Shown here piece by piece: positions 5,726 to 52,040 of a stretch of DNA of 64,000 nucleotides. The notes below the pieces were generated by a model. It was given only the letters and a program-made list of their open reading frames with translations. It was not told where the DNA came from and made no database searches. Both the position numbers and the translations under genes were made by a program. The stretch's first letter is position 1, and every line of letters starts with the position of its first letter. Source of the DNA: Stegostoma tigrinum (taxonomy: Eukaryota); assembly GCF_030684315.1 (NCBI RefSeq), contig NC_081393.1, forward strand, positions 16,301,479 through 16,365,478, in the 5' to 3' direction.

Positions 5726-8133
5726 CTGAAACACAGAGAGTAAGACTTATTTATTCTAATATCCATTATGCTCTTCTGATTGGAAGAAATCTTCATCTGT
5801 TTGCTCACTGCATTTTTTTCTCTGAATATTCTTTGAGCCACCAAAGTTGTCGCCTCATTATGACATTTGGTTTGAAACTCTGTTTAGAATAATACACAAG
5901 ACATCTTCAACCCCTCTCAAATGATAATCCAATAGTTCAGAATTCCTGTTATCTTAAAATTCCAAATTAATTCTCAATTAATTTCACCTTTATTTTTCTA
6001 CAGTAAATTTCTGATATTAAAGAAAAGATCCGCTTTGATGTTGTTCTTTCTTAACAAAAATAGGTTGTAAGTTCTGCTTCAAATATAAATCTTTGCCAAA
6101 CTTAAGCATGTATATGCTTCAAGAATGTGATACAAAGCACCCACTTGGAAGTGAGACTGACTTATTTTGTTTCTTTAAATGAATGTCGTAAGCAAGCCTT
6201 CATTAATTTAAACTGTTTTCAATTGTTGTCATTGTCATATGAAATTCATTCCAAATGTTCACCCCATATTTACACCTCTGAGTAATATTTTCAGCCTCTC
6301 TTTCTGTTTATTCTAGTGAGATTGGAAATAACTGCTTCATGAACATGCTAGCAAGTACCCAGGAGAAGAAATCTTCACAAACTCATTCACAGCATCACAG
6401 AAGAATTCTTATTGTGTGATTAGGTCATCCCAAAACTGTGAAAGAGCTGGTGTCTCAAATGTGCTTGCAACATTCTACAGCAAGGAAAATAGTTTAAATA
6501 CTGATCATAAAGTAAAAAGCAAGGCTCCACAATTAAGTATGCATTGCAAAATGGAGAAGTAAGAACAGTTTAATCATATCTGTGTTGATATTTATATTTT
6601 GCACAGCTTAAAGAGCAAAAATATGTTTAAACTTTACTGTGATCTTAGTGCTAGTTGGCAGTCATTCAGCATAGACTTTTATTGGTAGATTCAGAGAAGG
6701 AGCAATGAGGGTGGACCTCCACTAGCATTAGGTTAATTTGATTTCAGCAGTTGCATGAATATTTAATAAGGACACAAGTGATGGTATGGATGAACAAAGT
6801 TAGTAGCCATAAAACATTTGCTGGAACATGGTGCAGTTGGAGCAACACAAAAATGTCAGCTCTTGCATGTGGTTGTACGGTGTTCTAAAGCAGAAATTAT
6901 AACATTATCCTGGAGTTTCTAAGATCGTCTCCAAGACCTGATAGACCATTTCAAAAGGTAGTTAGTAGTTTTCATACGAACACCATCTTTTCTTAAATAG
7001 GTAGATTCACTGGCTGAGGTTTGCGATGAAGTTTAGTCTTTGGAAGTGTGTGCTATTGAAGACTACGTGTTCATTTCAACGTTTTATTTAAACTTGAACT
7101 GCTGTTCGTAATGTTAACCAAGATCAAGATGGTCAGGACTAGTTTGAATGCTCATGGGGATCAGAGAGGATTTTTCTAGATTCTTCTACCCAGCAGTTTG
7201 GCTGAGCACTATTGTCTTCATGTCAGATTCTCCCTTGCACCTGCTTCTTTCATCTGTCCTGTTAACTCCCACTCTGACTCAATTTTTCTGATAATTTTCT
7301 GTTAAGACCCTTGGCACATATTAGTATTGTTAAAGGTGTTGTAGAAAAACAAATTGAGAGTACACAATATTTGTATTAAGCAGGGAATATGCAGTAGAGA
7401 CTATCCTAATTTCAGATTACTATCCTGTGTTGTTTGATGCGTTTCATCACTTTATTGACAGTATTTCAAAATATGATATTTAATAGTCTCGGGGTAGTGA
7501 AATTGGTTTTAATATTATTGAAATAATTAGTTTCATAGGAATCATAGAACATTTACAGGAATAGTGCCAGACGACTGGAGGATAGCAAATGTGGTTCCTC
7601 TGTTCAAGAAGGGGAGTAGAGACAACCCTGGTAATTATAGACCAGTGAGCCTTACCTCAGTTGTTGGTAAAGTTCTGGAAAAGGTTATAAGGGACAGGAT
7701 TTATAATCATCTAGAAAAGAATAAATTGATTAGGGATAGTCAGCACGGTTTTGTGAAGGGAAGATTGTGCCTCGCGAACCTTATTGAGTTCTTTGAGAAG
7801 GTGACCAAACAGGTAGATGAGAGTAAACCGGTTGATGTGGTGTATTTGGATTTCAACAAGGTGTTCAATAAGGTTCCCCACAGTAGGCTATTGTACAAAA
7901 TGCGGAGGAATGGAATTGTGGGAGATATAGCAGTTTTGATCAGAAATTGGCTTGCTGAAAGAAGACAGAGGGTGGTAGTTTATGGGAAATGTTCATCCTG
8001 AAGACCAGTTACTAGTGTTGTACCGCAAGGGTCGGTGTTGGGTCCACTGCTGTTTGTCATTTTTATAAATGACCTGGACGAGGGCGTAGAAGGATGGGTT
8101 AGTAAATTTGCAGACAACACTAAGGTTGGTGGA

Positions 8134-9772
8134 TGATAAAATGTGAGGCTGGATGAACACAGCAGGCCAAGCAGCATCTCAGGAGCACAAAAGCTGACGT
8201 ATCGGGCCTAGACCCTTCATCAGAGAGGGGGATGGGAAGACGGAACTGGAATAAATAGGGAGAGAGGGGGAGGCGGACCGAAGATGGAGAGTAAAGAAGA
8301 TAGGTGGAGAGAGTATAGGTGGGGAGGTAGGGAGGGGATAGGTCAGTCCAGGGAAGACGGACAGGTCAAGGAGGTGGGATGAGGTTAGTAGGTAAATGGG
8401 GGTGCGGCTTGGGGTGGGAGGAAGGGATGGGTGGGAGGAAGAACCGGTCAGGGAGGCAGAGACAGGTTGGACTGGTTTTGGGATGCAGTGGGTGGGGGGG
8501 AAGAGCTGGGCTGGTTGTGTGGTGCAGTGGGGGGAGGGGACGAACTGGGCTGGTTTAGAGATGCAGTAGGGGAAGGGGAGATTTTGAAACTGGTGAAGTC
8601 CACATTGATACCATTAGGCTGCAGGGTTCCCAGGCGGAATATGAGTTGCTGTTCCTGCAACCTTCGGGTGGCATCATTGTGGCACTGCAGGAGGCCCATG
8701 ATGGACATGTCATCTAGAGAATGGGAGGGGGAGTGGAAATGGTTTGCGACTGGGAGGTGCAGTTGTTTGTTGCGAACTGAGCGGAGGTGTTCTGCAAAGC
8801 GGTCTCCAAGCCTCCGCTTGGTTTCCCCAATGTAGAGGAAGCCACACCGGGTACAGTGGATGCAGTATACCACATTGGCAGATGTGCAGGTGAACCACTG
8901 CTTAATGTGGAATGTCATCTTGGGGCCTGGGATAGGGGTGAGGGAGGAGGTGTGGGGGCAAGTGTAGCATTTCCTGCGGTTGCAGGGGAAGGTGCCGGGT
9001 GTGGTGGGGTTGGAGGGCAGTGTGGAGCGAACAAGGGAGTCACGGAGAGAGTGGTCTCTCCAGAAAGCAGACAGTGGTGGGGATGGAAAAATGTCTTGGG
9101 TGGTGGGGTCGGATTGTAAATGGCGAAAGTGTCGGAGGATGATGCGTTGTATCTGGAGGTTGGTAGGGTGGTGTGTAAGAACGAGGGGGATCCTCTTAGG
9201 GCGGTTGTGGCGGGGGCGGGGTGTGAGGGATGTGTTGCGGGAAATACGGGAGACGCGGTCAAGGGCGTTCCCGATCTCTGTGGGGGGAAGTTGCGGTCCT
9301 TGAAGAACTTGGACATCTGGGATGTGCAGGAGTGGAATGCCTCATCGTGGGAGCAGATGCGGCGGAGGTGGAGGAATTGGGAATAGGGGATGGAATTTTT
9401 GCAGGAGGATGGGTGGGAGGAGGTGTATTCTAGGTAGCTGTGGGAGTCGGTGGGCTTGAAATGGACATCAGTTACAAGCTGGTTGCCTGAGATGGAGACT
9501 GAGAGATCCAGGAAGGTGAGGGATGTGCTGGAGATGGCCCAGGTGAACTGAAGGTTGGGGTGGAAGGTGTTGGTGAAGTGGATGAACTGTTCGAGCTCCT
9601 CTGGGGAGCAAGAGGCGGCACCGATACAGTCATCAATGTACCGGAGGAAGAGGTGGGGTTTGGGGCCTGTGTAGGTGCAGAAGAGGGACTGTTCCACGTA
9701 ACCTACAAAGAGGCAGGCATAGCTGGGGCCCATGCGGGTGCCCATGGCCACCCCCTTAGTCTGTAGGAAGTG
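8134..9772 (-). mobile_element. 5'-truncated Penelope-like retroelement (Neptune-type): RT (GVAMGTRMGPSYA; RYIDD), Cys linker CNRRKCYTC, GIY-YIG endonuclease (VVYCIHCTRCGFLYIGET), 3' end with hammerhead-like motif
   Basis: ORFs 8915-9751 and 8448-8918 join into one frame after correcting a 1-nt loss in the G-run at 9282-9287; 13-bp TSD (8121-8133 / 9773-9785, 1 mismatch). Confidence 0.95.
8460..8580. repeat. Three ~39-bp G-rich tandem units in the Penelope element (encoding (S)SSPPPTAxxNQP-like repeats)
   Basis: Repeated ctggtt...atgcagt.gggg units seen directly. Confidence 0.8.
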
Positions 9773-12363
9773 TAAGGTCGGTGGAGTTGTGGATAGTGAT
9801 GAAGGATGCTGTAGGTTGCAGAGACATAGATAAGCTGCAGAGCTGGGCTGAGAGGTGGCAAATGGAGTTTAATGCAGACAAGTGTGAGGTGATGCACTTT
9901 GGTAGGTGTAACTGGAAGGCAAAGTACTGGGCTAATGGTAAGATTCTTGGTAGTGTAGATGAGCAGAGAGATCTCGGTGTCCATGTACACAGATTCTTGA
10001 AAGTTGCCACCCAGGTTGACAGGGCTGTTAAGTAGGCAAACAGTGTTTTAGCTTTTATTAATAGAGGGATCGAGTTCCGGAACCAAGAGGTTATGCTGCA
10101 GCTGTACAAAACTCTGGTGCGGCCGCACTTGGAGTATCGTGTACAGTTCTGGTCACCGCATTATAAGAAGGATGTGGAAGCTTTGGAAAGGGTGCAGAGG
10201 AGATTTACTAGGATGTTGTCTGGTCTGGAGGGAAGATCTTACGAGGAAAGGCTGAGGGACTTGAGGCTGTTTTCATTAGAGAGAAGAAGGTTGAGAGAGG
10301 TGACTTAATTGAAACATATAAAATAATCGGAAGGTTAGATAGGGTGGATAGGGAGAGCCTTTTTCCTGGGATGCTGATGGCAAGCACGAGGGGGCATAGC
10401 TTTAAATTGAGGGGTGAAAGATATAGGACAGATGTCAGAGGTAGTTTCTTTGCTAAGAGAGTAGTAAGGGAATGGAACGCTTTGCCTGCAACGGTAGTAG
10501 ATTCGCCAACTTTAGGCACATTTAAGTCGTCATTGGATAAGCATATGGACGTACATGGAATAGCGTAGGTTAGATGGGCTTCAGATTGGTATGACAGGTC
10601 GGCACAACATCGAGGGCCAAAGGGCCTGTACTGTGCTGTAATGTTCTATGTTCTGTTTCTGACAAAAATAGAGGCAGGTCAGATCATCATGTCCAAGCCA
10701 GTCCACTAAGTGTCCCAACCATTCCTATCTTCCCACATTTGGCATGTCATCCCATAGATCATGTCTCTTTAAGTAAACATTTAAAACATACGTTTTATGT
10801 TAGGATAGGAAAGCTTTGTTTTTAGGCAAAAGAATGATCAGAAACAGACAATGGGAACATTCCCATTTTTGATTAAATATGTAGCCAAGTTTCATTCAGG
10901 TTTGATATTGATTCCATACCTGTAACTTACTTTTACCAATCAATATCTGGACAACCGATCATAAGACTGAGGGATTTATCTGAGTATTCTTGAGATTTTT
11001 CACTATAAACTGGTGATTAGTATCTTGTGCCACCACATCATTATTATCTTTACCAGGAGGTGGATTACATATTTGATGTTAAATGGATCAGATTGAGTCT
11101 TGGGTCAAAAAGGAGCATACAATTTACTTAACAGAGGAGATGTAAATGGACAGTACCTAAATCAACTTTGTGTATTCACGGTAATGTACCAACATTACTG
11201 CCTATTTTGTTTTTTAATTTGGAAAGATCACTAAGTTATTATTTAACACGACTTACTCCCAAATAGTTGCTAATCAGATTTGTCCAGACGGTTTGCTGAC
11301 TGACAATCTGGTTCAAGCACCTGCACTTAAATTCTATGTCTGAGACTACTGGCTGCAAAGCTTTGAGACAACCATTGATGCTGTTCCTGCTCAATGACCT
11401 CGGACATTGCTGTCAGTTAGCTTTGTCATCCCAGGCTTGCCTTGCTTATTGAACATATTTTGAGATCTTTGGAAAACCTATTGGAAAAAAGTTGCAAACA
11501 AACTGACGTACTTTTCATTACATAGATCAGCTGCTATTTCACAGTATCAAAGCCTCACAATGTTTACTGAATCCTCATGGTTCAGAAGCTTCAAAATAAA
11601 AAGCTTGGCTATTTAAACACAAGCATGAAGCAAAAAGGGTCAGATTGTACAATTGCTTATTGCAAATTATTGTGCAGAACCTTTGTACTTCTGAGAAATA
11701 TATCTGATGAAACTAATCTGTAAAAATATTTTACATTTGGGCAAAGGCTTTGGGAGTACAATTGAGAACCAAGCAAAAGCTTATGCTGTCTGTTGTGAGA
11801 TGTTTCATAATTTCCCAATTAGTTATTTCTTTCCAAATCTGGTGAGGAGGCAAAGAAGTGAAATGGTGACATAAGTAACTGAGAAGACATCTTCCATTTT
11901 GCACTGCCCTTTGTCACGAACAGATTTTAGTATTGTGATCAGATGGAATTGGAAAATAAATGCACCAGGTTGGCTCTTCATAAATGTATGTAGGGAACCT
12001 GGCACACAGTTTGAGGATTGTTCATGCATGTTCCATCTGATTATCTTGCAGAGGGTAATGACTCCCAAGTGCAGTGATGGTTACATTAATAAAGTGCCTG
12101 ATTTTAAACCCTACAATTTAGCACGTGGGAAGACGTCAAGAGAATTCACTATACTCCAAAAGCAAACTTTCCACATGTTTAAGAAATTACAAACTTGTGG
12201 CATTAATTCACAAGATGTATTTATAACCTTGTGGCTTCAGGCTGGTTTCTCTAGCGTTTTGCAGTAAGCAATCCTTTGCTTTATGTTAAATCTATTTGAG
12301 ATGCAGTAGCTATGCCATTTAATTTTTGTCATGCAATTGTTAACCTAATTTCTAATTTTCAAA

Positions 12364-12570
12364 GATAGTAGGAACTGCCGATGCTGGAGAATCTGAGATA
12401 ACATGGTGTGAAACTGGATGAACATAGCAGGCCAAGCAGCATCAGAGGAGCAGGAAGGCTGATGTTTTGGATCAGTTTTTCTGAAGAAGGGTCTCGACCC
12501 GAAACATCAGCCTTCCTGCTCCTCTGATGCTACTTGGCCTGCTGTGTTCATCCAGCTTCACACTGTTATC
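12364..12570. mobile_element. Short palindromic Penelope-derived insertion; hammerhead core on + at 12481-12508
   Basis: Inverted arms homologous to 8134-8225; exact 13-bp TSD tctaattttcaaa (12351-12363 / 12571-12583). Confidence 0.9.
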
Positions 12571-14887
12571 TCTAATTTTCAAATTTGGTTTTTATTTTAA
12601 GTTTCCCAAATTCCTCTCTTAAAAGGTGCTAACTGTTGTGAGTGGACAGTCCCATTGTCCCAGTATCCACAAATTTTCATCCAAATAGTCTTTCTTCATC
12701 TGTGACCCTAGGAAGTTTATGTTGACAGGCTATTCAGCTGCATCACAGTTAAGCCAGTCCAGTTCACTCCTGATATTCCCATCTGAGCCATTTTGTTTTT
12801 CCTACCTCCTCATTTGGTCGCTTAAACGTCATTAATCTCCCTGCCGCACAAGAGGAATTTTCTTGCTGACAGATCTTTGTTGAGGAATGGAAGAGGAACA
12901 CGTAGTGAATTGTTATTTATTTCTGCTCCCTTACCAGAGAATCATCCCTGCTCCATTTGCAAGAGCATAAAAAACAGGATATCACTAGGCACACTAGCCT
13001 GTGTAGTTCTCCAGTACTGGGCGAGCCATTCCCGAGACAACCTGCATTACCTCCAGATCCGTACTGTTCCTTCCTCCTTGTATTAGGAAGGAAGAAATTT
13101 CCTCGGCTTAATTTAGTCTGGTAAAATTATAAAATCAACTCAAAGTATTTTTATAATTTTGCTACATCTAAAGAGTCCTCTGCCTCCTCAGACCCAGCCA
13201 CAGTTCCAAAATGCCTACTTTTCCATTCCTTGATTTGAAGAATTTACAATTCAGTTCTTCAAACCAGCCATTTCTTGCTTGAAATATCTACCCTGATCCT
13301 TCTCCATACCCTTTGAGCTTCATACTCTATTATTCATGATAAATGTTTTGTCCTGCTCTTTAAAAATCTTCTGTGGTGAGATCCACAGATACTTGACAGT
13401 GTTGTTCACTGTGGGTAGCAATGATAACTGAGACTCCAAGCATTGTACTTAAATCTGCCAGCCCTGTGAGCTATTAAACTGGGATGTGTAAAACCCAAAA
13501 AAAATTATGTTTCTTGGCACTTATAATTGCGAAAAGATTGAAACCAAATTACATCTTTAGCAATGAAAGAGCTGAAGAGGATTTGTTTTCCACAGCTATA
13601 AAAATGAATTGCTTGGGCTCTGATACAAGCCAGATTGTAAGTAATTAGAAGCCCATTGCCATTAAGTATTATAATTTCAGACAACCAGAGGGAGATCACT
13701 TAATGTAAAGCTGTGGTATAATTCAGGTGTAAGTCTTATTTTAGTGGTATTATCTTTGCCTCTGTGTCAGAAAGTTGTGGGTTCAAGCTCCACTCTTTAA
13801 AAACTTGAGCACATAATTTCAGCCCATGCTTTAATGACACAGCAAGAGTGTGCTGCACTGCTGGTGGTGATTTCTTTAGAAAGAGAAATTTCTGCACTGA
13901 TGTATTGCCTGATGTTCAGTTACAAATTTTAGAAGCTTTAAAAGGTTTTAATTTGATGTCACATTTGTTCATGAGAATATTGATGGAAAAGTGACAGTAA
14001 TCGCAGTTTGTCGACCAATCATGTAATTCTGTCATTGCCAAGCCTGAACATAAGATGATGACGAATCCTACCGAATGATATATTTTTGCTTAAATCACTT
14101 GATTAAAAAAAAACTATCTGAAACCTTAATGTAGTAAAGAAGTAAAGCAAGCTGTGAGTATTATTTTTGTGCACTCGTGGAGAAGCATTTCTGTTGGTTG
14201 GTGGTTAAATGTTGCTGAACATAGGTTGTATGGAAATCAGCCCACCCTTCTTCTGTTCATTGATCTAAGCTCAGCTTTTTGGGAAGTTTTTTGTCTCTGC
14301 AAATTCTAAAGGACTGAAACCAATCATCACTGTCATGATGAAATGTTAAGTGGGAAAGAAACCAGCCTAACCAATTTGACCTGCAAATGTGGATGTAGGA
14401 GATTGCAATGTTCAGAAATCACTAGCCATCCTGGAATGAAATTGGATCTCAGAGCAACCATGAACCATTTTCTCGTGGAAAAGGTTGAAGAGGCTAAACT
14501 GCATCCTTTTGTTTCCAAACTCCAGTTAGTGATGCAGTTAGACTCTGAACATAGAACTGTGGGTTAAAGGGGCACAGTCAACATTTTTTTGGTACAGAAC
14601 CAACATCACTTTTTAAATCCAATATTTTCCTCACGACTTGACTCCAAACAGTGAATGTTTCTATTAAATCATGCATACTTCATTGGAGATAAGCCTTGTT
14701 AGTTTGTGCAGAGTGAAAGAATTCCCTGCTGTGGTCATTGATTAAGTTCATTTACTTATTTTAAGTAGCTGCAGTTTAGTATGATTATTCGGCCACTGGG
14801 TTTCTAGTGTGAAGTACAGTAAAACCCAGACAATACAGAAATGGCTGAAATCAAAACTGGGCAGCCTTCGCTGGTCACACCACTTAC

Positions 14888-15055
14888 CTTTCCTTATTTG
14901 TGGTTTGTCGAGCTTTTCTTTTTGATTTTTCCGTCGAGTCTCCTTTATTTTTTGAGTCTTGGGTTTCTTTGCCTTTTTGCCACCTTTTGTTTTCTCAGGT
15001 TGTGTAGCCTCAGATGGCTTTTCTGCAATCTGCCCTTCTGTTCGTGTGCATACAT
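14888..15055 (-). CDS. DKK4: Dickkopf-4 exon 3 (end of CRD1 + Lys-rich linker: (D)VCTRTEGQ...KPQIRK(G))
   Basis: Acceptor ctctcttttAG, donor GTAAGT; 168 nt, phase 1-1. Begins DVCT and ends RKG like human DKK4 exon 3. Confidence 0.9.
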
Positions 15056-15896
15056 CTAAAAGAGAGAGAACAAAAGAGTTGTCTGTCAGAAATTGCCAAC
15101 AACACCCCACCCCCACCTCAACCCCACACCTTCCCTAGGGATCAATCTTCCCAAACAATTTCAGTACTTCACCATGAATTGCGTTCATAAGATGGAAAGG
15201 CTTTTAAAACAAACTTTATTGTGTGACACTTAACAGTGGTAGGTGTAGATTTACGCAGGATACAGCTGTATAAAAGCAGTGCCTCAGGCTAGTCGAGGGT
15301 GAGGGGAAGCAGTTAAGATTAAAGATACTTTTCAAAGGTGTACTTCTGAGCAGATTTCTGATGAAACATGAGTTGAGTTAAAGATTCTTAACTTCATACA
15401 GAACTCAACTTCATAAGAGGAGACAGCTAATTTCCTGTTGGATGAGGAACCACATTGCCTGCAATTCTTGCAGGCAGTTATTGCAAGTTTGTAGCCAGAT
15501 CCTTGATGGTTAAACATACTGAGGAATACTTTCCACATAGCAGCTTTCATTTCCCTTTTTTTTCCAACACACTTTCCCAGTCAGAAGGCCACCTTCATAA
15601 CGTGCCCTCTAATGTAGCAGCTAGTCGCTATGATCATTCTTTTCATTAGTTTTCTTTTTAATCCTCTTGAGCATCCTAACTCATCCGATACACTTTTTTT
15701 TCCCTCCTTTTAAATCACTGCTTCCCAAATGTTTAAACTTCTTAAATTCTTCAGAGTTTCTTTCCTCCGAGAGTCTGGATTTAAATTTGACAGTTACCAT
15801 ATTCCAAGGAAGACAGTGTTACCAAAGAGATGAGCCATGCTGAATGAAAAACCACCAGAGGCAGTAGGACCAGCAAAACTTGAAGGTAAACCAGCA

Positions 15897-16109
15897 GAGA
15901 TAATGGGAACTGCAGATGCTGGAGAATCCAAGATAACAAAGTGTGGAGCTGGATGAACACAGCAGGCCAAGCAGCATCTCAGGAGCACAAAAGCTGACGT
16001 TTCGGGCCTAGGCTCTCTGATGAAGGGTCTAGACCTGAAACGTCAGCTTTTGTGCTCCTGAGATGCTGCTTGGCCTGCTGTGTTTATCCAGCTCCACACT
16101 TTGTTATCT
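15897..16109. mobile_element. Short palindromic Penelope-derived insertion
   Basis: Near-perfect ~80-bp inverted arms; exact 14-bp TSD aaggtaaaccagca (15883-15896 / 16110-16123). Confidence 0.92.
16012..16050 (+). ncRNA. Minimal type I hammerhead ribozyme motif (CTGATGA-stem II-GAAA-CGTC; predicted cut after 16044)
   Basis: All conserved core nucleotides present; palindromic ACGT stem III as in dimer-dependent PLE hammerheads; activity untested. Confidence 0.7.
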
Positions 16110-17639
16110 AAGGTAAACCAGCATGTTGTCATAATATTTTCTCTCTCTCTCAGCCTCTGTCCATACCACTCCCACTCCCATCCCTCTCTCTCGCGCCCCC
16201 CCCCCCCACCCAAGTTACAACCCAACATCACCCTTGTCTCCCATGGGTAGTCTGCACCAGAAGAAAGTGTAAACACATTGTGAAAAGTTTGGGTAAATGT
16301 TAGGGTGAACCCAAGACTTTATAATGCATATGATGTCAAATTTATTATTTTTAAATATCTTGGGCAGAATTTTAGCAGCATCTGAGCTTTGTGGGTGAGA
16401 TTTGTGACAAAGCCAGATGAGAAATGCGGCAGCGCCTATATCACTGTCAGGAGCTTCATTTTTTATGATTTTCGAGGCAGTGTGGTGAATAAATGGGGAG
16501 AGGTGAGTTGTCAATTAAGGGGGATTGTAGCTTGTTAAACAACCGTGCAGGACGACTCTGTATTCATTGTGGTTGTCTAGGTACACAACAGGTTTTTGAC
16601 GATGGCGTGGGTGCAAGTCTGCTGATCTTTTAGTGGATAACCAGCAAATGGCAAGTTGTTCGGAGAACCGATTATGGTAAGATAGGACTAAAAGTGGATG
16701 AGAAGGATCCTGTGGGGCCAAGGTACTAAATTAATGAAGAACTCTTGGTGAGATATAGTGGAATGTCCTGCTGGGCCTTATAGTGAGAGTCCCCCCAAAA
16801 CCGTGACTCAACTCACATGAGTCCAAAAAAAAGTAAAATTCAGCCCCTCATATCATACTCATCCCTCAGTTTGCTTAGAGATTTCAAAATTATACACAAT
16901 TAATACATTGTATGATATATTTGCAAAACCTAACTTTCTGTGCCATGGCTGAAACATCCAGAATTTCATTTTTCTGTTGTGTCTAGTGTTTGAAGCTATT
17001 GCCATCTTTCACTTATATCTCCTGGAAAAAATATAGGCATAATGGTCACAAAGTATGTCCTTGTAAGTAATTGTTCCTATGAATGGAATAGTGAAAGAAG
17101 ACAGTTAATCGGAATTTAGCAAGCTAAGATTCATGTTTTAAAAGACAAGTTCGCTCCTTACTGTCTGTTCTATTTTAAAGTTTTAAATTATTACAGACTG
17201 TGTCACTCCCTACAGCACAGTACAGCTGTATCCTGCAGATGTAGATGTTGCCATCCATCAAGTTTTAGTAACATATCGATGCTGTTTTAACGAATTAATT
17301 CTGTCCCCATTGAAAGCTTTGACTCCTTGGGAACACAGTACAATAGGAGAACGGCAAATGCTTTGTTCAAATCTCACAAGGTTGATTGCTCCATTTCTTT
17401 GTCTGAAGAACCAGAGCCAACAGTAATATTATCGTTCCACCCTGGCTGAGATGAGCGAGTTTATTTGGGATCAAAGTTGGCACCTTCCCAGAATGTATAT
17501 TTATCTCTGGTTGCATGACTCCTGGAATGTTCAGTCTTGCCAGCACTATGTTGAGAAAAGACTGACTGCTACGCACTCGATTTTTTTAAAAAAATTCCAC
17601 TTATGCATTCTTCTTGACAAAAACCTATTTCTGACTCTG

Positions 17640-18225
17640 AAAGATGTGTCTTGGTTGGCGATGAATAGCTTAGAGAAGAGTGTTCTGAGGATTAACATCG
17701 ACCACTTAATTGTTCCAGCCAGATGTGTGCTATGGCTGCAATAGCAGGTCAAATGCTGGGAATTATATGTGTAACTCAGCTACTGACTTCCCAAAGCCTG
17801 TCTACCACCTACAAGACACATGTTAGGAATATGATTGATTACTCCATTATTGTTTGAATGAATGCATCTCCAAATACGCTGAAGAAGCTTGACACCATCC
17901 AGAGCACAGTAGCTCACTTGATTGGCACCCACCTTAAACGTTCACTGTCTCCACCACCAATACATGGTGGTTTACAGAGACACACATGTGCTCGCTCACT
18001 CAGTCACTCTCACCCACAGTCTCATGCACACGCTGTCCTGCTCTCTCGTTTGTTCACTCACTGTTTGGAACAACATCTCTTTTCCTTCATTATTGTTTAT
18101 TCCAAAATCTCGAACTCAGTTCCCAACAGCATTGTGGGTGTAGCACATTGCAAAGACCACAGTGGTTCAAGAAAACAGCTCATCACCGCCTACTCATGGG
18201 CAATTTAGGAAACAGAATAAATTTT
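17640..18225 (+). mobile_element. Old non-LTR LINE 3' fragment (CR1/L2 group)
   Basis: Decayed 'ttyktHVR..i.ys' / KKLDTIQ coding remnant; tail gggcaatttagg...aataaa resembles the SINE tail at ~63700. Confidence 0.6.
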
Positions 18226-18374
18226 GGAGTTTCCCATGAGCAATGTTTTAAAAAGAAAACACACAGTGAAATTTCTAAGAATGGGAGCTGGATTTGCAAA
18301 TTGCTTTTTTGTTAAATCAACCAAACTGGGGACATAAATCCCACAACTAGACAAAGAAACACAATAGAAACACA

Positions 18375-18536
18375 GAGATAACAAAGCGTGGAGCTGGATG
18401 AACACAGCAGGCCAAGCAGGATCATAGGAGCAGGAAAGCTGACGTTTCGGGCCTAGACCCTTCTTCAGACTTTAGCTTTCCTGCTCCTATGATCCTGCTT
18501 GGCCTGCTGTGTTCATTCAGCTCTACATCTTGTTAT
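18375..18536. mobile_element. Short palindromic Penelope-derived insertion
   Basis: ~63-bp inverted arms; 15-bp TSD caca(a/g)tagaaacaca (18360-18374 / 18537-18551). Confidence 0.9.
18435..18473 (-). ncRNA. Minimal hammerhead ribozyme motif (CTGAAGA-agggtctaggccc-GAAA-CGTC), sense to the DKK4 pre-mRNA
   Basis: Reverse complement of 18441-18468 has an intact core, sitting in the loop between the inverted arms. Confidence 0.7.
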
Positions 18537-20229
18537 CACAGTAGAAACACATACATCTTCCCCTTTGCTGAGCCGGTGTAGCTCCAGCATCATTGGAAGG
18601 ACAGTTCTGTGTGACTGGAGGTGGGTTAATAGTACAGTGTTCCTTCACTAACAGAAAGGCTGTACTAAGGCAATATAACACTAATACAAGTGGGGACAGT
18701 ATTAAGTATCAGCTCAGCAATACAAAGAGAACTCTGCAATGTCTGGGGACAATACTGAGGGAATACTGCAAAGTTTGAAAGCTGGACTCACAGAGTAAGC
18801 TTGAGACACTTATTGGACTGTACATAACATACTGTATTCAGCAGTTGTCATGGACCTAACTGCACACTTAGATTGACTTTGATTTCAGCTTCTACCTCTT
18901 TGAGCTCGATGAAGAACTCTTGAAAATCATTCTTAGTTTGCCTACTTCAAAGGTACACATCACAGCAAAGACCTCATGAGGTATCAATTCTTGAATCCTT
19001 TGAAAACAGTCAATTCATGTAAATAGCTACTTACTTCAAAGATACTTCTCTCAATCAAGATTTCCTTACTTGTCTGCTTTGGAATAAGTTTGTTCACCAT
19101 TTATCTTCCTATCCTGTAATTAATTGCTCTCCTCTGCTTCTGAAGGAAGTTATCCTTCAACCAGTCATGGCCAACATTGTCACAGTCACTTATTTTCTTG
19201 CATAATAGTTTCTTATTCGTAATAAACTAAGATTTGAAGCAGAAGATTAGACAAGCGTCCTTCTTTGCACTTCATTGCTGGCATTGAATAACCATTGCTT
19301 TAGGGCACAGTGAAAATCTGTTATTAATCCATGACTCTGCAAGATGCTTAACAATGGCCATTTACACATTGGCAGTCTGAAAGGCAGGTTTTCCAGAGGA
19401 TGTGCTTCAATGTCAAGGAACAGTGGGTTAAATACGTTCTGGACGCTGGGGAAAATGCTTTTCCATGTTTACAGTGAATGTTTGTATTTGCAGCCACTCC
19501 TTAGTTTTTTGGAGGGGCTGCTGCGAAATTTTTGGTTGCATTTCAGCTGAATGCTCCTGATCTGTGGGCACCCCATGCAGATGGTTTGGCAGGGCAGGTC
19601 AGAGGGTGTCTTGTAGGTTTGTCCCTGGGCTTGACCAACGTGGCCTTTAACAGGATCAAACAGCAGGCTGTGGAGGAGTCATTCTAACTAACTGCCCGCC
19701 CCTTTTTTTTGCATTTACATCCGCATTCGGATCCACAGAGAATGAGCGGTGTCCACTGGCACCATAGAGGCCTTTTAGAGACTGGTGAGCACTGCAGGGG
19801 CTGGAGTGCATTATTACTGCGGACAATGATATTTTGTTAACCACTAGTTTGTATTTTGGTTGCAGTGGCAAACATGGCCGTTTAACCAGGTTTTAAGCCT
19901 GATTTTTAAAAAGCCAGAAGCAGTGCTGAGTGAGTGTTAAACCAAAGAGCTTCATTTATTGTTGTGATATCATTGTACAATTTTTCAGGGATGTTTCTGG
20001 TCTGTCTCTCCTTCACCTGTGTAAGGAGTAGATTTTGCATCTCTACGTACCTTTTCATTCCATTCTCCTTTTGCCTGCTACCCACTGTTGTTTGAGTCAC
20101 TATGTTTTATTTGCTCCTAAAGAATTCTGTTAAAAGCCAGGGTTATTCCATTGTCCATAGAGCAAGGGAAAGGAACTCCATTAGATGGAAATAGTTATGT
20201 CATGTACCACTCCTATGCTGAGCAGGAAT

Positions 20230-20970
20230 TGGAGTAGACTCATAGATGTTTCCAGTGCAGAAGGAGGCCATTTGGCCCATCATGTCTGCAATAGTCAGCA
20301 AGGATCTGACTACGCTATTCTCATTTTCCAGTTGTTGGAGGTGATGGGAATACAATCAAATATCTAAATACTGATTAAATCTTTTGAGAGTTTCTGTCTC
20401 AACCACCCTATCAGACAGTGAGTTCCAGAGACCCCACCCTCTGAGTGGAAAAAAAATTCTCTTCATTTTTCACTTCGCCTTGTGTTCTATTTAAACGTTT
20501 CAATTTTAAACACCTTCTTATAACAGTGCCCTCTCAACCTTTGCTGCTTCAAGGAAAACAACCCCAGCCCCTCCAGTCTTTCTTCATAGTCCACACTGTA
20601 GCCCATACAGCATCCAGGTAAATCTCCTTTGTACTCTCTCTTGTGTAATCACATCCTTCTGGTCATCTGGTGCAGTTGTGGCCTAATCAGTATTTTATAT
20701 AGTCTTCGTATAACGTCCTTTGTTCTTGTATTGTGTGCCTCGATTAATGAATTAATGTACACCAAGATCCTCTTGATCTTCTGTACTTCCCAGAGTCCTC
20801 CAGTTTACAGTGTATCATTTGCCTTGTTAGTCCTCCCTCAGTGCATTTTTTGACACTGTTTTTGGGTTGAATTCCATTTGCCATTGCTGTGCTCACCTGA
20901 CTGGTCCATCTTCTCTCAGTTTACAGCTATCCTCCTCAATATTCGCCACCTGATCAATATTTGTGTCATT
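20230..20970 (-). mobile_element. Degenerate CR1 LINE 3' fragment
   Basis: Similar to the reverse complement of the CR1 RT C-terminal region and tail. Confidence 0.65.
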
Positions 20971-21479
20971 AATGTGGGATCAGTGAATATACCCTAACCA
21001 TTTCATTGACTGCTGGTGAATTTACCTCCATTCACTTTGCTGCAATGACACTGACTTCTACCCATCAGTCTGTGCTGTGTCATTTCAAAAGTAAATCTTG
21101 AGCACAATATTGTTAAAGCCATAAAGCCAACCAAAGAGAAGGTGACACTGGATAAAATAGACTGAGCTTTCTGATTTGGGATATGTTAATGCAAATGTGC
21201 AAATGCTAAATGGCTATGGTTTCCTCTAGTGTCAAAGTAATGTCTATCAGAAACAGTAGCCATTCAGTTACCCAGTGTGATCCGAAGAGTAAGATTTGTA
21301 TTTGCACCATGTCGTTTGGAATAATCCAGCTTCACCACTGACTGACTGACTCCTGGGATATGTGCAGTCATTTTGCTTTGGATTCCTTTCAGGCTATAAT
21401 GTGAAGTGAGCTTACTTCACATCAACTCTGTGAGAAAGCTGTTTGGTAGAATCTCATGTTGCTGCAGTTCAGTCCTTAC

Positions 21480-21630
21480 CATTTAAACAGTGGCTCCCAG
21501 AGCAGCACATTTCATCACGTTGGCACTGTCTCCTTAGCCCCCTGCAAGCAGAGCAGATGGGTTGGTCATGATGGGAAGTGAGGCAAAAGCTCCCAGGGCC
21601 ACAGTCAGGATCTGCCAAGCACCGAGACAC
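21480..21630 (-). CDS. DKK4: Dickkopf-4 exon 2 (CRD1: VSRCLADPDCGPGSFCLTSHHDQPICSACRGLRRQCQRDEMCCSGSHCLN)
   Basis: Not in the ORF track; read by hand. Acceptor gattcttcAG, donor GTAAGG; 151 nt, phase 0-1. Cys spacing and CRGLRR.CQRD.MCC match human DKK4. Confidence 0.95.
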
Positions 21631-21868
21631 CTGAAGAATCAATGAAAAACATCATTGTAGTGAAAAATTAAGACTAGATCAGTGATTAATGCTTGTGGGA
21701 CATTAACAGTACAAGAAAGGGAGTTGGGGATCCAGCAGTGTAACATTATGAGAGAGTTGGTGTTCACACATTTCCATGCACCCATTCTGTATTTGAAATT
21801 TGTAATTTGTAATTACCTGCAGTGAGTCCTCACTGTACATTGTTGTAACCCAACATGATCTGCTTGGT

Positions 21869-22025
21869 GATAATGGGAACTGCAGATGCTGGAGAATCCA
21901 AGATAACAAAGTGTGGAGCTGGATGAACACAGCAGGCCAAGCAGCATCTCAGGAGCACAAAAGCTGATGTTTCGGGCCTAGACCCCTGATGAAGGGTCTA
22001 GGCCCGAAACGTCAGCTTTTGTGGC
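21869..22025. mobile_element. Short palindromic Penelope-derived insertion; intact hammerhead core on + at 21986-22013
   Basis: Exact 15-bp TSD catgatctgcttggt (21854-21868 / 22026-22040); CTGATGA-agggtctaggccc-GAAA-CGTC. Confidence 0.92.
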
Positions 22026-22089
22026 CATGATCTGCTTGGTAACATCTCTTTGCAGTTTGTCATTAATTTTAAGCCAGATGATTGAGCAA

Positions 22090-22365
22090 TCCCTACTCTG
22101 TATCAATATGTTCCAGTTCTGGAAATTTTGATGCGGGCACAGGGAGCTTTACTCTGTCCCCATCAAACACTCTAGGACAACAACAGTGCAAGGTTAGACA
22201 CCATGTCAAGAAGTTTTTCTTTCAATTTAAAAAGAGTGGAAAGTACTTATAGTTTAAAAGAATAGAGGGAGCTTTACTCTGTATCTAACCACATGCTATA
22301 CCTAAACTGTGAATATCTGATGGGACAATGTCGAGGGAGCTTCGTTGCTACCCTATGCTGTGCCA
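22090..22365. repeat. Degenerate tandem/dispersed repeat with unit core 'agggagctttactctgt'
   Basis: Core recurs at ~22141, ~22266 and ~22334. Confidence 0.55.
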
Positions 22366-22764
22366 TTCTGGCTCTGAGAGGGCCAAATCACTGGACTGAA
22401 AGAAAATTAGCAAGCAGTCAAAATGTTTGCTTCAAGAGTTGATGGTTTTGCTATGAAGTCAAGTTATTGAAATGGGCAGGGGATAATACTGGGCTCATCA
22501 CATTTTCTGCTCAAGAGTGGAAAAAAGTGTGTATTTCATTCTAGGCTGGGGCTGCTTTCCCTGGACTGTTGGAGGCTGAGGGTTGACCTTCTTGAGGTTT
22601 TTAAAATCATGAAATCATTCTTGGCAAAAATAAAATAGATAACTGAGAACAGGAAAATATGAGAATTGCAAAGGATGTCACAACAGTTTCAAAATCAGAC
22701 TATCAACAGTAGAAAAGACCAATCACTGAGTAATCAGCCCAAAATTCCTGTTGATGTAACAGTT

Positions 22765-23578
22765 TTTTCTCATTTATATAAATGATTGTATGTGAACATA
22801 GGAGGTATGGTTAGTAAGTTTGTAGATAATACCAAAATTCCTGGTGTAGAGGATAGCGAAGAAGGTTACCTCGGAGTACAAGTTGGCCAGTGGGCCAAGG
22901 TATGTCAGATGGAGTTTAATTGAGGTAAATATGAGGTGTTACATTTTTGTTAAGGCAAACCAGTCAGGACTTATGGTAGGGTCCTGGCGAGTGTGCCAAT
23001 CCAAGAGACCTAGGGATACAGATGAATAGTTCTTTGAAGGTGGAATTGCAGGTAGACAGGGTGGTGAAGAACATATTTAGCATGCTTGTCCTCATTGGTC
23101 AGTGCGTTTAGTGTTGGAGCTGGGAAGTCATGTTGCGGCTCTACAGGACACGGGTGAGGCCACTTTTAGAATACAGTGTTCAATTGTTGTCTCCCTGCTA
23201 TGGGAAAGATATTGTTAAACTTGAAAAGGTTCAGAAACTATTTACTGGGATGTTGCAGGGATTGGAGGGTTTGAGCGATAGGGAGAGGCTGAATAGGCTG
23301 GGGCTGCTTTCCCTGGAGTGTTGGAGTCTGAGGGTTGACCTTCTTGAGGTTTTTAAAATCATGAGCGGCATGGGTACGGTGAATAGCCAAGGTCTTTTTC
23401 TAGGGGAGGGTAGCCTAAAAGTAGAGGGCATAGGTCTTAGCTGGGAGGGGAAAGATTTAAAATAGCTTGCAGGGCAACTTTAAGGAGAGGTTGGTGCGCG
23501 TATGGAATGAGCTACTAGAGGAAGTGGTGCAAGCAGATACAATTACACCATTTTAAAGGCATCTGGATGGGTACACGC
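22765..23578 (+). mobile_element. CR1 LINE fragment (RT C-terminus)
   Basis: ORF 23130-23465 LYRTRVRPLLEY...; decayed SKFVDNTK motif. Confidence 0.85.
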
Positions 23579-23786
23579 TGTGCCTGTTTAAAAGACAGTC
23601 CACCCAGTGAATCTCGACTTTGTAAGTAATGTTCAACTCAGGACGTACTCAGTTCAACTCAGCTGCTGGTAAAGATCCCACAGCGATACATTGTAAATAG
23701 TGCGGCGGCGTTTTTGTTGATAGTTTAACTGTAGCCACTAGGCGGTGCTATTTACCCTTGTGCAACCTAGCCAACTGGAGCCAGTG

Positions 23787-23948
23787 ATATCAGGAACTGC
23801 AGATGCTGAAGAATCCGAGATAGCAAGGTGTGGAGCTGGATGAACACAGCAGAAAATTCTGACGAAGGGCCTAGACCCAAAACGTCAGCCTTCCTGCTCC
23901 TCTGATGCTGGTTGGCCTGCTGTGTCCATCCAGCTCTACACCTTGTTA
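23787..23948. mobile_element. Short palindromic Penelope-derived insertion; core on + with GAAA mutated to AAAA
   Basis: 15-bp TSD caactgga(g/t)ccagtg (23772-23786 / 23949-23963). Confidence 0.88.
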
Positions 23949-25949
23949 CAACTGGATCCAGTGCCAGGTTCTAACCACAGCAACTAAATTCATTCAGCTG
24001 TTTAACCCTGTTCAGTCAATGTTTCTGGTATTACAAGGACTGGTCAACTTTCGCACGGATTGTGCTCCGAGGAGTTTAACTGCAATGCGTGTGATAAAAA
24101 GTGACAACACATGGTACGTTTTGTTAATAGCACATTTGACATGGAGAATCTCATGCTGGGATCAGTCCCGTGTCAGCGAGATCAAAAAGTACCTTTTACT
24201 TCTAGCTACGCGATCCCCCTCACAACAAGGGTTTTGACCGGAAGGGATTAAAATAAATGGGGAGTGCATATTATTCTTTAAATCCCGTTAGCCTGTATAT
24301 TTCTTTTTACCCCAGCTGCGTTGCAATACTAGTTGACCCCTGAGTCGTCGACTTGAAACACAATTTCGTTGAGGTCTGCTCTATGCGAAATGATGCTCTC
24401 TGACAATGGAGTGAAGTGAAGAATGTAGAGAACAAACACCAGCATGGACCTTTTTGTGCCAAATTGCTTCTGTCAACGATGCCCGGCGCGATACGCAAAC
24501 CGTGAAACCAAGTCCGTGTCAACCTGGAGGTGACTCAGGGTTGCACATTGTTGATCGTTCTTGATTTTTAATGGCCATTTCAGCTATTCGATAGGGATAG
24601 GACCCAAAGGAGAGATTGGCTTGTGGCTGCTGCTCACTTGCTGCAGAAGATGCTTTTGCTATTCCCCTAGAAATGAGGACTGTGCGATGTCCTGTAGCGG
24701 GATTCATGTTGTGCAAGACCGATGTAAAGGCTAAGGGTGAATCTTCACGTAACGTTTATGGAGAGAAACAGAATTGAATAAGGAAGGGATGAGCTGGTGG
24801 CATTTCCATACCTATGTTTCTGTACGTTACACAAATGTGAAAAAAAATCAGCTAACTGGAATTTGTCCAAATTGTATTATCCTTACCAATTCTCTTTTCT
24901 GGACTGTGTAGCGTCACTTGTGTCATTTGTTCCTCACCTTGCCTCTCTTTCTTGATCCCTTTATTTTTTGTTTCAGCTGTCCCGCACACACAGACACATT
25001 GCTCCTTTCTGTTTGGAACACTTTGCCCCCTGCTGTTGGTGTTCTTCATCTCCGCCTCTGTGTGTCTGCCTTTCGCTCGGGCACAAGTACAGAGGATGCT
25101 CCCGAGGAGAGGCTGGACAAGTTTTGACCGTTCTCCTTGGAAGAAGAGAGAGCTTCCAGGAGCCTGAATAAAGGTTTTCAAAATTTTCTGCAGCTTTGAT
25201 TGAGAAGGCACAGAGACCCTCTTGTACCTCTGACAAATGGGCCTAACAACAAGAGGTTATAGATTTGAAACTTATTGACAAAGGATCTAGACTACAAATG
25301 TTTTCAGTCAGTTGAAAGGATCTGGAATGTTTTACCGGAGAGATTGGTAGTTTAACTGTAGCCTGTTTGAATGAATAATGTTACGATTGGGCAAGTTTCA
25401 AGTTGACGGATAAAAATCAGGAGCAAGGATTTGAGACTAATAATGTTATTTTTGAACCAACATAACCACTGTAGGCTATCCGGCTTTCTGCATGTGCTGG
25501 AATTATGGCTATTCGAGCCAATGTGCTACCTGGCGTCAATGACCATAATGGCCACAAGTTCGCTTGGGAATGAGTTACTGGCATCAAAATTGGGAGAGAG
25601 CTGAGCCGCTCAACACACCATCTATCCGCTTCACTCAATTTGCTACACTGGCATTTGGGGCTAGTTGCTTCAGTAATTTTAGGAGAAACTTTATCAGCTG
25701 GTCAATATCCCATCTACTTCCTTGACGGGGTTGTAGGAATCTCCCCCACAGTGTACCTCGCCTGCTAAGCAACAGTGGAGGATGACCAAGGATGGAGTGG
25801 AATACTTAAAAGTTCAACCCATGACTTGTCAAAGTCCAGCCATATACGGTCGGCACCAATAGAATTCTGCCATTCCCAAACTTACCGAAGGTTGTGCAGT
25901 ATCTCTGTTCCAGTCGGCACTGGACTGAGTTCTTTAGGAACAAGCATAA

Positions 25950-28579: not shown

Positions 28580-29260
28580 TCATAGAGTTGTACAGCATGC
28601 AAACACATCCTCTGACCCAACTAGCCTATGCTGACCATGTTCCCAAGCTAAATTAGCCCCACTTGCCTGCATTTGACCCATATCCTTCCAAACCTTTCGG
28701 ATCCATGTACTTACCGAAATGCCTTTTAAGTATTATAACAGGACCTGCAGCCACCATTTCCCCTGAGTAATTCATACCACACACAAACCATTCCCTGGGT
28801 GATAAAAGTTGCCCCTTTGTAAAAGTTGCATTCTTTTTAAAACTTTCTCCACTCATCGAGTATGGCCTCTGGTTTTGACTCTCCCACCCTAGGGAATAGA
28901 CCCTTGCTTTTGACCTTACCAATGCTCCTCATGATTTTATAAACCTCCATAAGGTCATGCCTTAACCTCCCACACTCCAGTGAAAAATGTCCCAGCCTTT
29001 TTTTGTCACTCAAACCCTGTATTCCTAGCAACGTCCTGGTAAATCTTTGAGCCCTCTCTGGCTAGTAATATCCTTCCTACAGCAGGGTGACCAGAATTGG
29101 ACAGAGTACTCCAGAACAGGCCTCACCAGTGTCATGTACAACCTCAAGATAACATCCTAAATTCCTGTACGAGAAAGGTCTGAGCAATGAAGGCAAATGT
29201 GCCAAACGCCTTCTTAACCATTCTGTCCACCTGTGATGCAAATTTCAAAGAATTTCATGA
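28580..29260 (-). mobile_element. CR1 LINE 3' fragment
   Basis: ORFs 28653-28922 and 28837-29031 are decayed CR1 C-terminus. Confidence 0.8.
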
Positions 29261-29432
29261 TCACTAAGGAGAGGGACTTTTTCCCCCCAGATATATCAAT
29301 CAAATTTGAATTCCCCTGGATTGTCTACACTAACATAATGCAGTTGTTTACTTCTCTTATTTCGCAGAAGCACAGAACCTTTGCATTTGGTCTGCAGTCA
29401 GAATCAGTGTGTACCAGAAGTCCCCAGCACAG

Positions 29433-39289: not shown

Positions 39290-39412
39290 TTACAAAGGGT
39301 TTTGGCCTGAAACATGGACTTTTCTGCTCCTTGGATGCTGTCTGACCTGCCGTGCTCGTCCAGCCTCACACCTATAGACTCTGGCTTCTAGCATCTGCAG
39401 TCCTTATTGTCT
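39290..39412 (+). mobile_element. Decayed Penelope 3'-end/pLTR fragment
   Basis: aagggttttggcctgaaacat...gatgctg..tgacctgc...gcatctgcagt resembles the first family. Confidence 0.65.
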
Positions 39413-50000: not shown

Positions 50001-50495
50001 AACTCTATTCACATGAGTGGCAGCTTTCAGGGAACTGTGGACCCCAAGATCCCTCTGCTCCTCCACACTGTCAAGAATGTTTCTGTTAACCTTGTATTCT
50101 GCTTTCAAGTCTGTTCTTCCAAAATGAATCACCTCACACTTTTCAGGGTGAAACTCCATCTGCCACTTCTCAGCCCAGGTCTGCATCCTGTCAATGTCCC
50201 TTTGTAACCTAGAACAGCCCTCTGCACTGTCCACAACTTGACCTACCTTCGTATTGCCCGCAAACTTATTAATCCACCCTTCCGCTCCTTCCTCCAAATC
50301 ATTTACCAAAATCACAAGTAGAAGAGGACCCAGGACACATCCTTGTGGTACATGACTTGTAAACGAGCACCATGTTGAATATTTTCCATCAACTACCACC
50401 CTTTGTCCTCTAAGGGTCAGCCAATTCTGAATCCAATCTGCCACATTTCCCCCATCCCATGCCTCCTTACCTTCTGCATGACCCTACCATGGGGA

Positions 50496-50899
50496 GCATA
50501 GAACACTACAGCGCAGTACAGGCCCTTCGGCCCTCGATGTTACGCCAACCTGTGAAACCAATCTGAAGCCCATCTAACCTACACTATTCCATTATCATCC
50601 ATATGCTTATCCAGTGATCATTTAAATGCCCTTAAAGTTGACAAGTCTACTACTGTTGTAGGCAGGGCATTCCACACCCTTAGAGTAAAGAAACTACCTC
50701 TGACTTCTGTCCTATACCTATCACCCCTCAATTTAAAGCTATTTCCCCTCGTGATAGCCTTCACCATCCGAGGAAAGAGGCTCTCGCTGTCCATACTATC
50801 TAATCCTCTGATCATCTTGTATGTCGCTATTAAGTCACCTCTTAACCTTCTTCTCTCTAATGAAAACAGCCTCAAGTCCCTCAGCCTTTCCTCATAAGA
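50496..50899 (-). mobile_element. CR1 3'-end fragment nested inside the younger CR1
   Basis: New tail catagaacac at 50497; host ccatgggga|accttatcaaacgcc rejoins across it. Confidence 0.85.
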
Positions 50900-51934: not shown

Positions 51935-52040
51935 GTAGCTCCTTTTCTGAAGAAGGGTTTAGGCCCGAAACGTCAGCTTTCCTACTCCTCTGATGCTGCT
52001 TGACCTGCTGTGTTCATCCAGCTCTACACCTTGTTATCTC
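51935..52040 (+). mobile_element. Penelope 3'-end fragment with intact hammerhead core (51947-51974), sense to VDAC3
   Basis: CTGAAGA-agggtttaggccc-GAAA-CGTC followed by one family arm; inserted in a CR1. Confidence 0.85.

Follow-up and report, generated by a model that had tools for sequence, protein, structure and literature searches.

A stretch of 64,000 nucleotides from the shark Stegostoma tigrinum (contig NC_081393.1, positions 16,301,479 to 16,365,478; the window in what follows) carries five short palindromic insertions. An autonomous Penelope-like element (PLE) is their probable source: they would be the shortest of its head-to-head insertions with two arms, each of them likely made anew at insertion and likely unable to copy itself further. 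They form the short end of a continuum of such PLE insertions rather than a separate retrozyme-like family. We also cautiously favour a reading in which these stubs constitute a genome-wide 5'-end map of PLE germline RNAs, with a predicted capped start at -3, a predicted uncapped end at the hammerhead cut and a fixed twin priming at two sites 34 nt apart on one RNA.

Window coordinates are 1-based. Positions on the element (x) are counted in PLE sense direction, with C3 of CUGANGA as +1, so that the predicted hammerhead cut falls between +28 and +29. The terminal sequence of the PLE at 8134-9772 makes up both arms of each palindrome in the window, first in antisense and then in sense; none of the five is assigned a strand. 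In window order, the arm 5' ends are at 16/-2, 13/-3, 0/29, 9/1 and 59/-1. The palindrome at 12363..12571 has a tail arm from +126 to +16 (minus) and a short arm from -2 to +93 (plus), with the core at 12481. Its target site duplication (TSD), CTAATTTTCAA, comprises 11 bp, or 13 when boundary ambiguity is allowed. The one at 15897..16109 has a tail arm that runs from +127 to +13, then one extra G, and a short arm that runs from -3 to +93; its core is at 16017, and it is flanked by an exact TSD of 14 bp. The palindrome at 18375..18537 has two short ends (TSD of 14 bp with one mismatch); its left arm runs from +94 to 0 and has its core on the minus strand at 18468, while the 5' end of the right arm is exactly +29, the predicted cleavage site. 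At 21869..22025, a tail arm from +125 to +9 is joined to a right arm from +1 to about +38, which is a non-standard 3' end (core at 21986; exact TSD of 15 bp). The last palindrome, at 23787..23949, has a tail arm ending at +59, a short arm from -1 to +91, a GAAA that reads AAAA, and a TSD of 13 bp with one mismatch. Two single arms lie on the plus strand: one at 51941..52040 (-5 to +94, intact core at 51947) and an old diverged one at 39295..39412 (+7 to +126, 78% to the best reference). No TSD was seen at either when their flanks were read. A first-pass annotation of the window had described five palindromes and two single arms derived from the PLE end, with GAAA mutated in the copy at 23787; all of this was recovered from the sequence. 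Its TSD length of 13-15 bp has to be widened to 11-15 bp, a TSD being present on all five.

Folded as RNA, the window minis form long hairpins (-79 to -175 kcal/mol), the lowest value belonging to the copy at 15897; the copy at 12363 reaches -139.5 kcal/mol with a stem II probability of 0. Besides this copy (12364), those at 15897 and 21869 also have a helix II probability of 0, whereas it is about 1 on the minus strand of the copy at 18375 and, in the copy at 23787, for three pairs. The cores are on opposite strands, and they are buried in the hairpin in three of the five copies.

On its sequence features, the parent is classified as an endonuclease-positive (EN+) PLE with one open reading frame (ORF) that encodes a reverse transcriptase (RT) and, C-terminal to it, an endonuclease (EN) of the GIY-YIG type, a pseudo-long terminal repeat (pLTR) in partial tandem, a tail and an inverted arm. 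The window copy (8134..9772, minus strand) is 5'-truncated. It retains part of the RT, a CX4CX2C linker, the EN (E=7e-4, below the Pfam cut-off), the 3' region and the pLTR, and has its short end at +92. It is flanked by a 13 bp TSD with one mismatch (8121-8133 / 9773-9785), and the genome holds copies that are 97% identical. Thirty look-alikes have their 3' end at +93 or +127, both on ATTATCT, and in many of them there is also an inverted arm, which measures between 94 bp and more than 1.4 kb. In loci with a 5' part, the partial tandem runs from the 3' region through the hammerhead (+1..+28), +93 and +127 to the ORF, with the first Met at about +168. Of the 25 loci with 5' sequence, 11 have the pLTR immediately before the ORF, and the tail has 34 nt. 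A natural arm in a targeted stretch (L095) has an open RT-EN frame of 1003 aa, with RVT_1 and GIY-YIG matches that are weak and below the Pfam cut-offs. Among 8,000 scored sequences, 1,937 are homologues of this ORF at E<=1e-20, the nearest named ones being from carpet sharks (75-93% identity). The linker in this frame is CNRRKCYTC (CX4CX2C), and a CX2-5CxxC linker between RT and EN is given as a feature of Neptune and Nematis in the part of Craig 2021 (PMC8557442) consulted here. The proposed assignment to Neptune-type machinery can be kept as far as the linker goes, but the linker is common to Neptune and Nematis and does not separate these clades. As an observation on the ORF, a variable-number low-complexity repeat (ADGTPPT units) precedes the RT and differs between copies (L095:7560-7730, L178).

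In the window copy, RT and EN are separated by a one-base frame break in a T/C homopolymer (about 9320-9345, minus strand). The same break occurs at 28 of 43 readable sites, mostly look-alikes picked with the window copy, and was also seen in L045, L046, L048 and L049; the partner arms of four are in frame. A frameshift common to the whole subfamily was rejected, partner arms and other copies being in frame. The break may be a slippage hot spot or an assembly error.

One alternative is that the palindromes are miniature inverted-repeat transposable elements (MITEs) of a DNA transposon. They are short, have an inverted-repeat shape and carry TSDs, as MITEs do. Symmetric, fixed terminal inverted repeats with a short TSD of fixed length were not found, however: the ends are asymmetric by the 34-nt tail, the centres vary, the arm sequence is that of an RT-EN element's 3' end, and the TSDs have a variable length, mostly 12-17 bp within a range of 9-20 bp. 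An origin as MITEs is barely credible, and the earlier view of the palindromes as PLE products is upheld.

To place the window copies in context, an unselected sample of 113 stretches of 10 kb each at round coordinates (1.13 Mb of the 3.2 Gb genome, L095 being excluded) was analyzed. It contains 258 pLTR arms; with 57 natural long arms as the reference, 253 of them were called and five remained uncalled. There are 68 head-to-head pairs from 125 bp to 3.2 kb. Of these, 46 are minis, defined as two-arm head-to-head insertions of 125-238 bp, which amounts to about one per 25 kb, not one per 8 kb as the window alone had been taken to indicate, and to about 130,000 in the genome by extrapolation. 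The TSD finder was positive at 44 of the 68 two-arm insertions and at 10 of 400 random sites, and the TSDs (9-20 bp, mostly 12-17) are alike in minis and long pairs. Six pairs with a non-standard end were set aside; among the other 62, 55 combine one tail end (+127) with one short end (+93) (p=2e-10). An intact core is present in 20 of the 46 minis, in three of them on both strands. All 46 mini junctions differ. The arm variants of the window minis also occur in long ORF-bearing arms, and the minis thus track successive subfamilies of the autonomous element. Several TSDs start with (T)AAGGT beside the short end (L001-L030 flanks; window 8121 and 15883), which might hint at a target preference.

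The first-pass annotation had proposed a retrozyme-like non-autonomous system, that is, a separately replicating family with hammerheads that process its own transcripts. Such a family would account for the high abundance (about 130,000), for the conservation of the motif with compatible changes, and for junctions that recur, such as the one shared by 15 of the 30 best genome matches to the copy at 15897, or those of two perfect palindromes with 952 and 595 copies (see below). The 15897 junction, however, has only 18 exact copies genome-wide, and its reading as a master copy was rejected as an effect of query selection. The recurrent junctions fall where 5' ends of the RNA are predicted and are found in more than one subfamily. 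More than half of the unselected minis (26 of 46) lack an intact core, minis have no TATA-like box, and the cores of the window copies lie on opposite strands and are buried in three of the five. Measured against non-LTR (long terminal repeat) retrozymes, the arms are inverted and not in same-strand tandem, and with 46 different junctions in 46 minis and recurrent junctions spanning subfamilies, there is no defined replicating unit. Same-strand neighbours within 400 nt number three among 96 cores, in L084 and L115. With arm variants that also occur in long ORF-bearing copies, we regard a separately replicating family as quite improbable, and the label of a new retrozyme-like family does not stand.

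In L115 (4900-6250; G000:C22:10004900-10006250), one TSD-flanked two-arm insertion consists of 301-nt tandem units with the TATA-like box, the hammerhead, the tail and the first 106 nt beyond, the ORF being skipped. The skip junction has four occurrences in the genome, all in that insertion and on both arms, with a private A-to-G at +29. The unit was therefore rejected as a family, its junction being confined to that insertion; the insertion has the look of a nascent retrozyme-type array, perhaps derived from a circular template.

The arms are numerous enough for a finer question. Genome-wide, 182,755 arms match an exact 24-mer, and with more than 180,000 arms RNA ends can be read at single-base resolution from DNA alone. 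Among the 196 sample arms of at least 85% identity that were used for density counts, a wall of 5' ends is seen at -6..0 (43 arms, 6.1 per nt); the density is 0.24 per nt on the upstream side (-56..-7) and 1.66 per nt on the downstream side (+1..+50). In 50 of the 57 long arms, a TATTTA is found at -33/-34, about 30 nt before -3. In the window PLE, the TATA-like TATTTA and a pyrimidine-rich predicted start are at 8226..8256 (minus strand), with the first T near -33; the position of the start at -3 is deduced from the wall of arm ends. A non-C base precedes -3 in 8,078 genome matches, compared to 71,802 read-through arms. Row classes of such whole-genome pattern matches were counted by eye in the first 100 rows of each pattern. 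For -3, 13 rows are point variants of read-through arms, and the other 87 have G (61), T (19) or A (7) before the start. A G that precedes a retrotransposed 5' end is a known sign of a copied cap. The perfect palindrome centred on G-C at -3 accounts for the 952 copies mentioned above, and an untemplated G is also clear in L184 at an arm end at -1. Taken together, -3 is likely a capped transcription start. Two contig sets, which are likely DNA, have a loose end with most contigs at x=0, but contigs cannot show starts.

Since the predicted start lies three bases before the core, most junctions adjoin the hammerhead. The earlier statement that the junction is always at the motif holds in the window, where at least one arm of every copy has it within or next to the hammerhead, but genome-wide only 26 of the 46 unselected minis reach C3. 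Likewise, a link between junction and ribozyme exists only for a minor class of arms whose first base is precisely that after the predicted cut, among them the right arm of the copy at 18375; the majority of junctions go with the predicted start of transcription.

This minor class was examined with patterns for starts at +27 to +31 that demanded two mismatching bases before the start. The matches genome-wide number 605, 842, 2,966, 450 and 437 at +27, +28, +29, +30 and +31, respectively, and about 26, 49, 91, 76 and 85 of the first 100 rows were true joins. At +29, these rows comprise 58 AGCT-centred palindromes and 33 other joins. When palindromes are removed, about 980 joins remain at +29, versus about 160, 410, 340 and 370 at +27, +28, +30 and +31. 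Perfect 28-mer palindromes occur 595 times at AGCT (+29..+32), compared to 39 at ACGT, five bases upstream, and 21 at GGCC, downstream; the ACGT control is equally self-complementary, and CpG decay was allowed for in its count. Six AGCT-centred copies have different subfamily variants, the tail on either side and TSD-like flanks. As these copies span several subfamilies, they are not offspring of one master. A G before +29 was found in 4 of 18 rows that look unrelated to the partner arm, which is no enrichment and is as expected of an uncapped end.

These counts also bear on a formation of the minis after insertion, by central deletion of long inverted insertions. Long inverted two-arm copies are common, and long palindromes are deletion-prone. 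Such deletion, however, predicts neither the sharp wall at -3 with its preceding G nor that AGCT should outnumber nearby 4-mer palindromes 15- to 28-fold, and single arms and template jumps also start at -3/-1 and +29. We consider it very unlikely. Independent of this question, pLTR arms that start at -3/-1 or +29 are joined to internal ORF sequence by template jump or nesting in L184 (2780-2900), L185 (2540-2690), L211, L212 and L220. Short same-strand repeats starting at +29 are present in L210, L223 and L224, and in L159 (9485-10000) a pLTR segment of an older subfamily, +37..+91, is present seven times in tandem.

The motif itself is a PLE-type minimal type I hammerhead with a conserved core, a helix II and a palindromic helix III; its cleavage is predicted. 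In the long PLE of the window it is located at 8196..8223 (minus strand), with GAAA changed to GATA. Over 131 arms, the core is nearly invariant except for CpG decay, whereas N7 and the loop are variable. Changes in the helices are compatible with pairing (helix I pair: C-G 68, U-G 42, U-A 14; helix II pair: U-G 102, U-A 24). A scan with the covariance models of Rfam gave no hammerhead family at E<=5, only sub-threshold matches to microRNA (miRNA) hairpins. When two short pLTR RNAs were cofolded, a helix II duplex but no hammerhead dimer was obtained, though energy minimisation does not model the core. The description by Cervera and De la Pena 2014 (PMC4209133, consulted in part) is matched, as first proposed: it has the same CUGANGA, one unpaired base, helix II closed by G-C, GAAA, a palindromic ACGU helix III and a short helix I. 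As known from its sequence, the element of the window differs in having a helix II of 4 bp with a near-palindromic loop and a helix I of only 2 bp. In Schistosoma, pairs of hammerheads on opposite strands, 100-700 bp apart, are described in the same source.

From these data, we propose how a mini would arise. Transcription would start at about -3, behind the TATA-like box of the upstream tandem unit, and yield a capped RNA, a small share of which would be cut by the hammerhead after C17 and start at +29. The RT-EN protein, probably as a dimer, would make a staggered cut of about 14 nt. Both 3'-OH ends would then act as primers for cDNA, the one starting at +127 and the other at +93, with a single RNA as the probable template. 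When the 5'-most pLTR of the RNA is used, both cDNAs would run off at -3 or +29 after 65-130 nt. Their ends would be trimmed and joined via a microhomology of 0-12 nt, for example, a terminal GC (in which the C stems from the cap) or the AGCT at the end of the cleavage product, to leave a palindrome between TSDs. The resulting mini would be devoid of a TATA box, and any read-through RNA would fold as a hairpin that buries the motif. In L1 twin priming, both target nicks also prime cDNA, giving an inverted 5' part, with the second primer annealing at variable internal sites; here, both primings would occur at two fixed sites 34 nt apart. If true, such priming would explain the inverted arm and the one-sided tail together.

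Several observations are consistent with this proposal. Long copies of the window PLE have an inverted two-arm build and two 3' ends like the minis. Among the 55 tail+short pairs, there are 16 in which the short arm extends beyond the tail arm in the 5' direction by more than 5 nt; with the tail being only on the other arm, neither partner contains the other. Partner arms have rare variants in common in 21 of 106 cases, compared to 5.1 expected (5 of the 68 pairs were excluded from this test). These shared variants, the tail/short asymmetry, several long pairs with near-equal arms and the junction in L115 suggest a shared template for both arms. For another PLE, PAc, the available part of Frangieh 2024 (PMC11167929) reports that the protein, for which a dimer is predicted, cuts both target strands and extends them and that two internal RT start sites define the tail; the PAc hammerhead is protein-assisted and dispensable for insertion in vitro.

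A single cDNA end might instead snap back and copy itself, with the endonuclease resolving the hairpin and leaving the tail on one side. This fold-back is close to readings given in Arkhipova 2013 (PMC3846280) and Craig 2021, as far as the consulted parts go. It accords with the perfect palindromic centres as hot spots (952 and 595 copies), with the 18 of 55 tail+short pairs that end within 5 nt of each other, with partner arms being more alike than age-matched arms (0.921 vs 0.876) and with short snap-back inserts at some junctions. The 16 pairs with the short arm further 5' and the tail on the other arm alone are not plain copies, however, and the 5' excess reaches hundreds of bases in L141, L155, L032, L045, L051 and L053. 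Both outer ends are at the two standard start sites, and centres with a loop of 0-2 nt would be hard to form as hairpins. Fold-back is thus unlikely, though it is the strongest of the alternatives.

A number of points weigh against twin priming on one RNA and against reading the arm ends as RNA ends. Of the five two-arm loci that are readable on both arms, four show a one-base difference between the partners at the RT-EN homopolymer (in L034, the second match belongs to an older copy that is unrelated); this could go back to slippage, to an error in the assembly or to two distinct templates. The variants shared by partner arms could result from gene conversion or subfamily structure. Concerning the start at -3, a clearly untemplated G beside a TSD was found only in L226 among 20 hand-picked loci; the G is shared with the target in L234 and L236, is absent in L240 and L241, and no TSD was detected in the remaining ones. 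Among the sequence sets listed with matches, none is on record as RNA. The +29 class makes up about 2% of the 182,755 arms; its peak is absent from the unselected sample (2 of 196 arms) and is seen only in the whole-genome pattern counts. For an older subfamily, the counts for this class are only 20 vs 7, obtained with a 26-nt and a 28-nt probe. Simple TSD-flanked single arms number two among the 20 loci retrieved for +29, both with an ambiguity of 1-2 nt, and most of these loci are joins to partner arms or template jumps. A pause of the RT at an RNA structure could mimic the +29 peak, though it need not hit that exact base. With an RNA start at -3, helix I comprises just 2 bp. Finally, Frangieh 2024 looked at Anolis and found no RNA reads with an end at the cleavage site.

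As to the surroundings, the long PLE sits inside an RT frame of the long interspersed nuclear element (LINE) type and interrupts it (window 7531-8133 and 9773-10650). Other decayed copies with LINE-like RT/endonuclease are at about 29000-32200, 48100-52000 and 56800-57600. The LINE-like copies, including the one hit by the PLE, are putatively CR1/L2-like.

The anatomy of these insertions is already published: an inverted pLTR, a one-sided tail, a TSD and a palindromic junction are typical of PLE insertions according to Arkhipova 2013 and Schostak 2008 (PMC2377424). What is new are the two defined 5' ends of the arms and a testable twin-priming model. The insertion units of EN+ PLEs, as described in the consulted portions of these two papers and of Craig 2021, have the same partial tandems, head-to-head inverted arm, one-sided tail (30-40 bp, compared to 34 nt here), TSD and palindromic junctions, and the same RT with a C-terminal GIY-YIG. 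They differ in that ORF-free stubs of two pLTRs are very numerous here (about one per 25 kb) and that two defined points emerge from the 5' ends of the arms. The promoter looks TATA-like here, while Penelope of D. virilis is reported to be TATA-less and the pLTRs of A. vaga are reported with a putative TATA and initiator (Inr), again from partial sources.

PAc, from Poseidon of Anolis, resembles the shark element in having the two RT start sites that define the tail, the cutting and extension of both strands, and the pLTR hammerhead. Its ORF starts inside the hammerhead, whereas here it starts about 140 nt after it. PAc belongs to the Penelope/Poseidon clade, but the linker here is of the Neptune/Nematis type. 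For PAc, Frangieh 2024 saw no in vivo ends at the cleavage site, while genomic copies pile up there in the shark. Non-LTR retrozymes (Cervera 2020, PMC7229834; Li 2026, bioRxiv 10.64898/2026.07.22.740005; both consulted in part) are likewise short and non-coding, with a type I hammerhead, kinship to PLE pLTRs and TSDs of more than 4 bp. They are, however, same-strand tandem repeats expressed as circles, whereas the minis are inverted, heterogeneous and often without a core.

In the literature covered, mostly at the level of abstracts and with few subscription papers, no description was found of these shark stubs, of the cap mark or of PLE copies starting at the hammerhead cut. The element family may already be named in Dfam or Repbase. 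Both the cutting by PLE hammerheads in vivo and the origin of the inverted arms and the one-sided tail are stated as open in the consulted parts of Cervera and De la Pena 2014, Craig 2021 and Frangieh 2024.

The stubs resemble MITEs or miRNA hairpins (with weak sub-threshold Rfam miRNA matches) and should be annotated as PLE fragments. The proposal makes sharp predictions: a capped end at -3, a 5'-OH end at +29, and one tail and one short end per event. If true, this would be the first in vivo evidence that the minimal hammerhead of an animal PLE cuts and that its 3' product is reverse-transcribed. The ends at +29, if read correctly, would then be a fossil record of a ribozyme working in the living animal.

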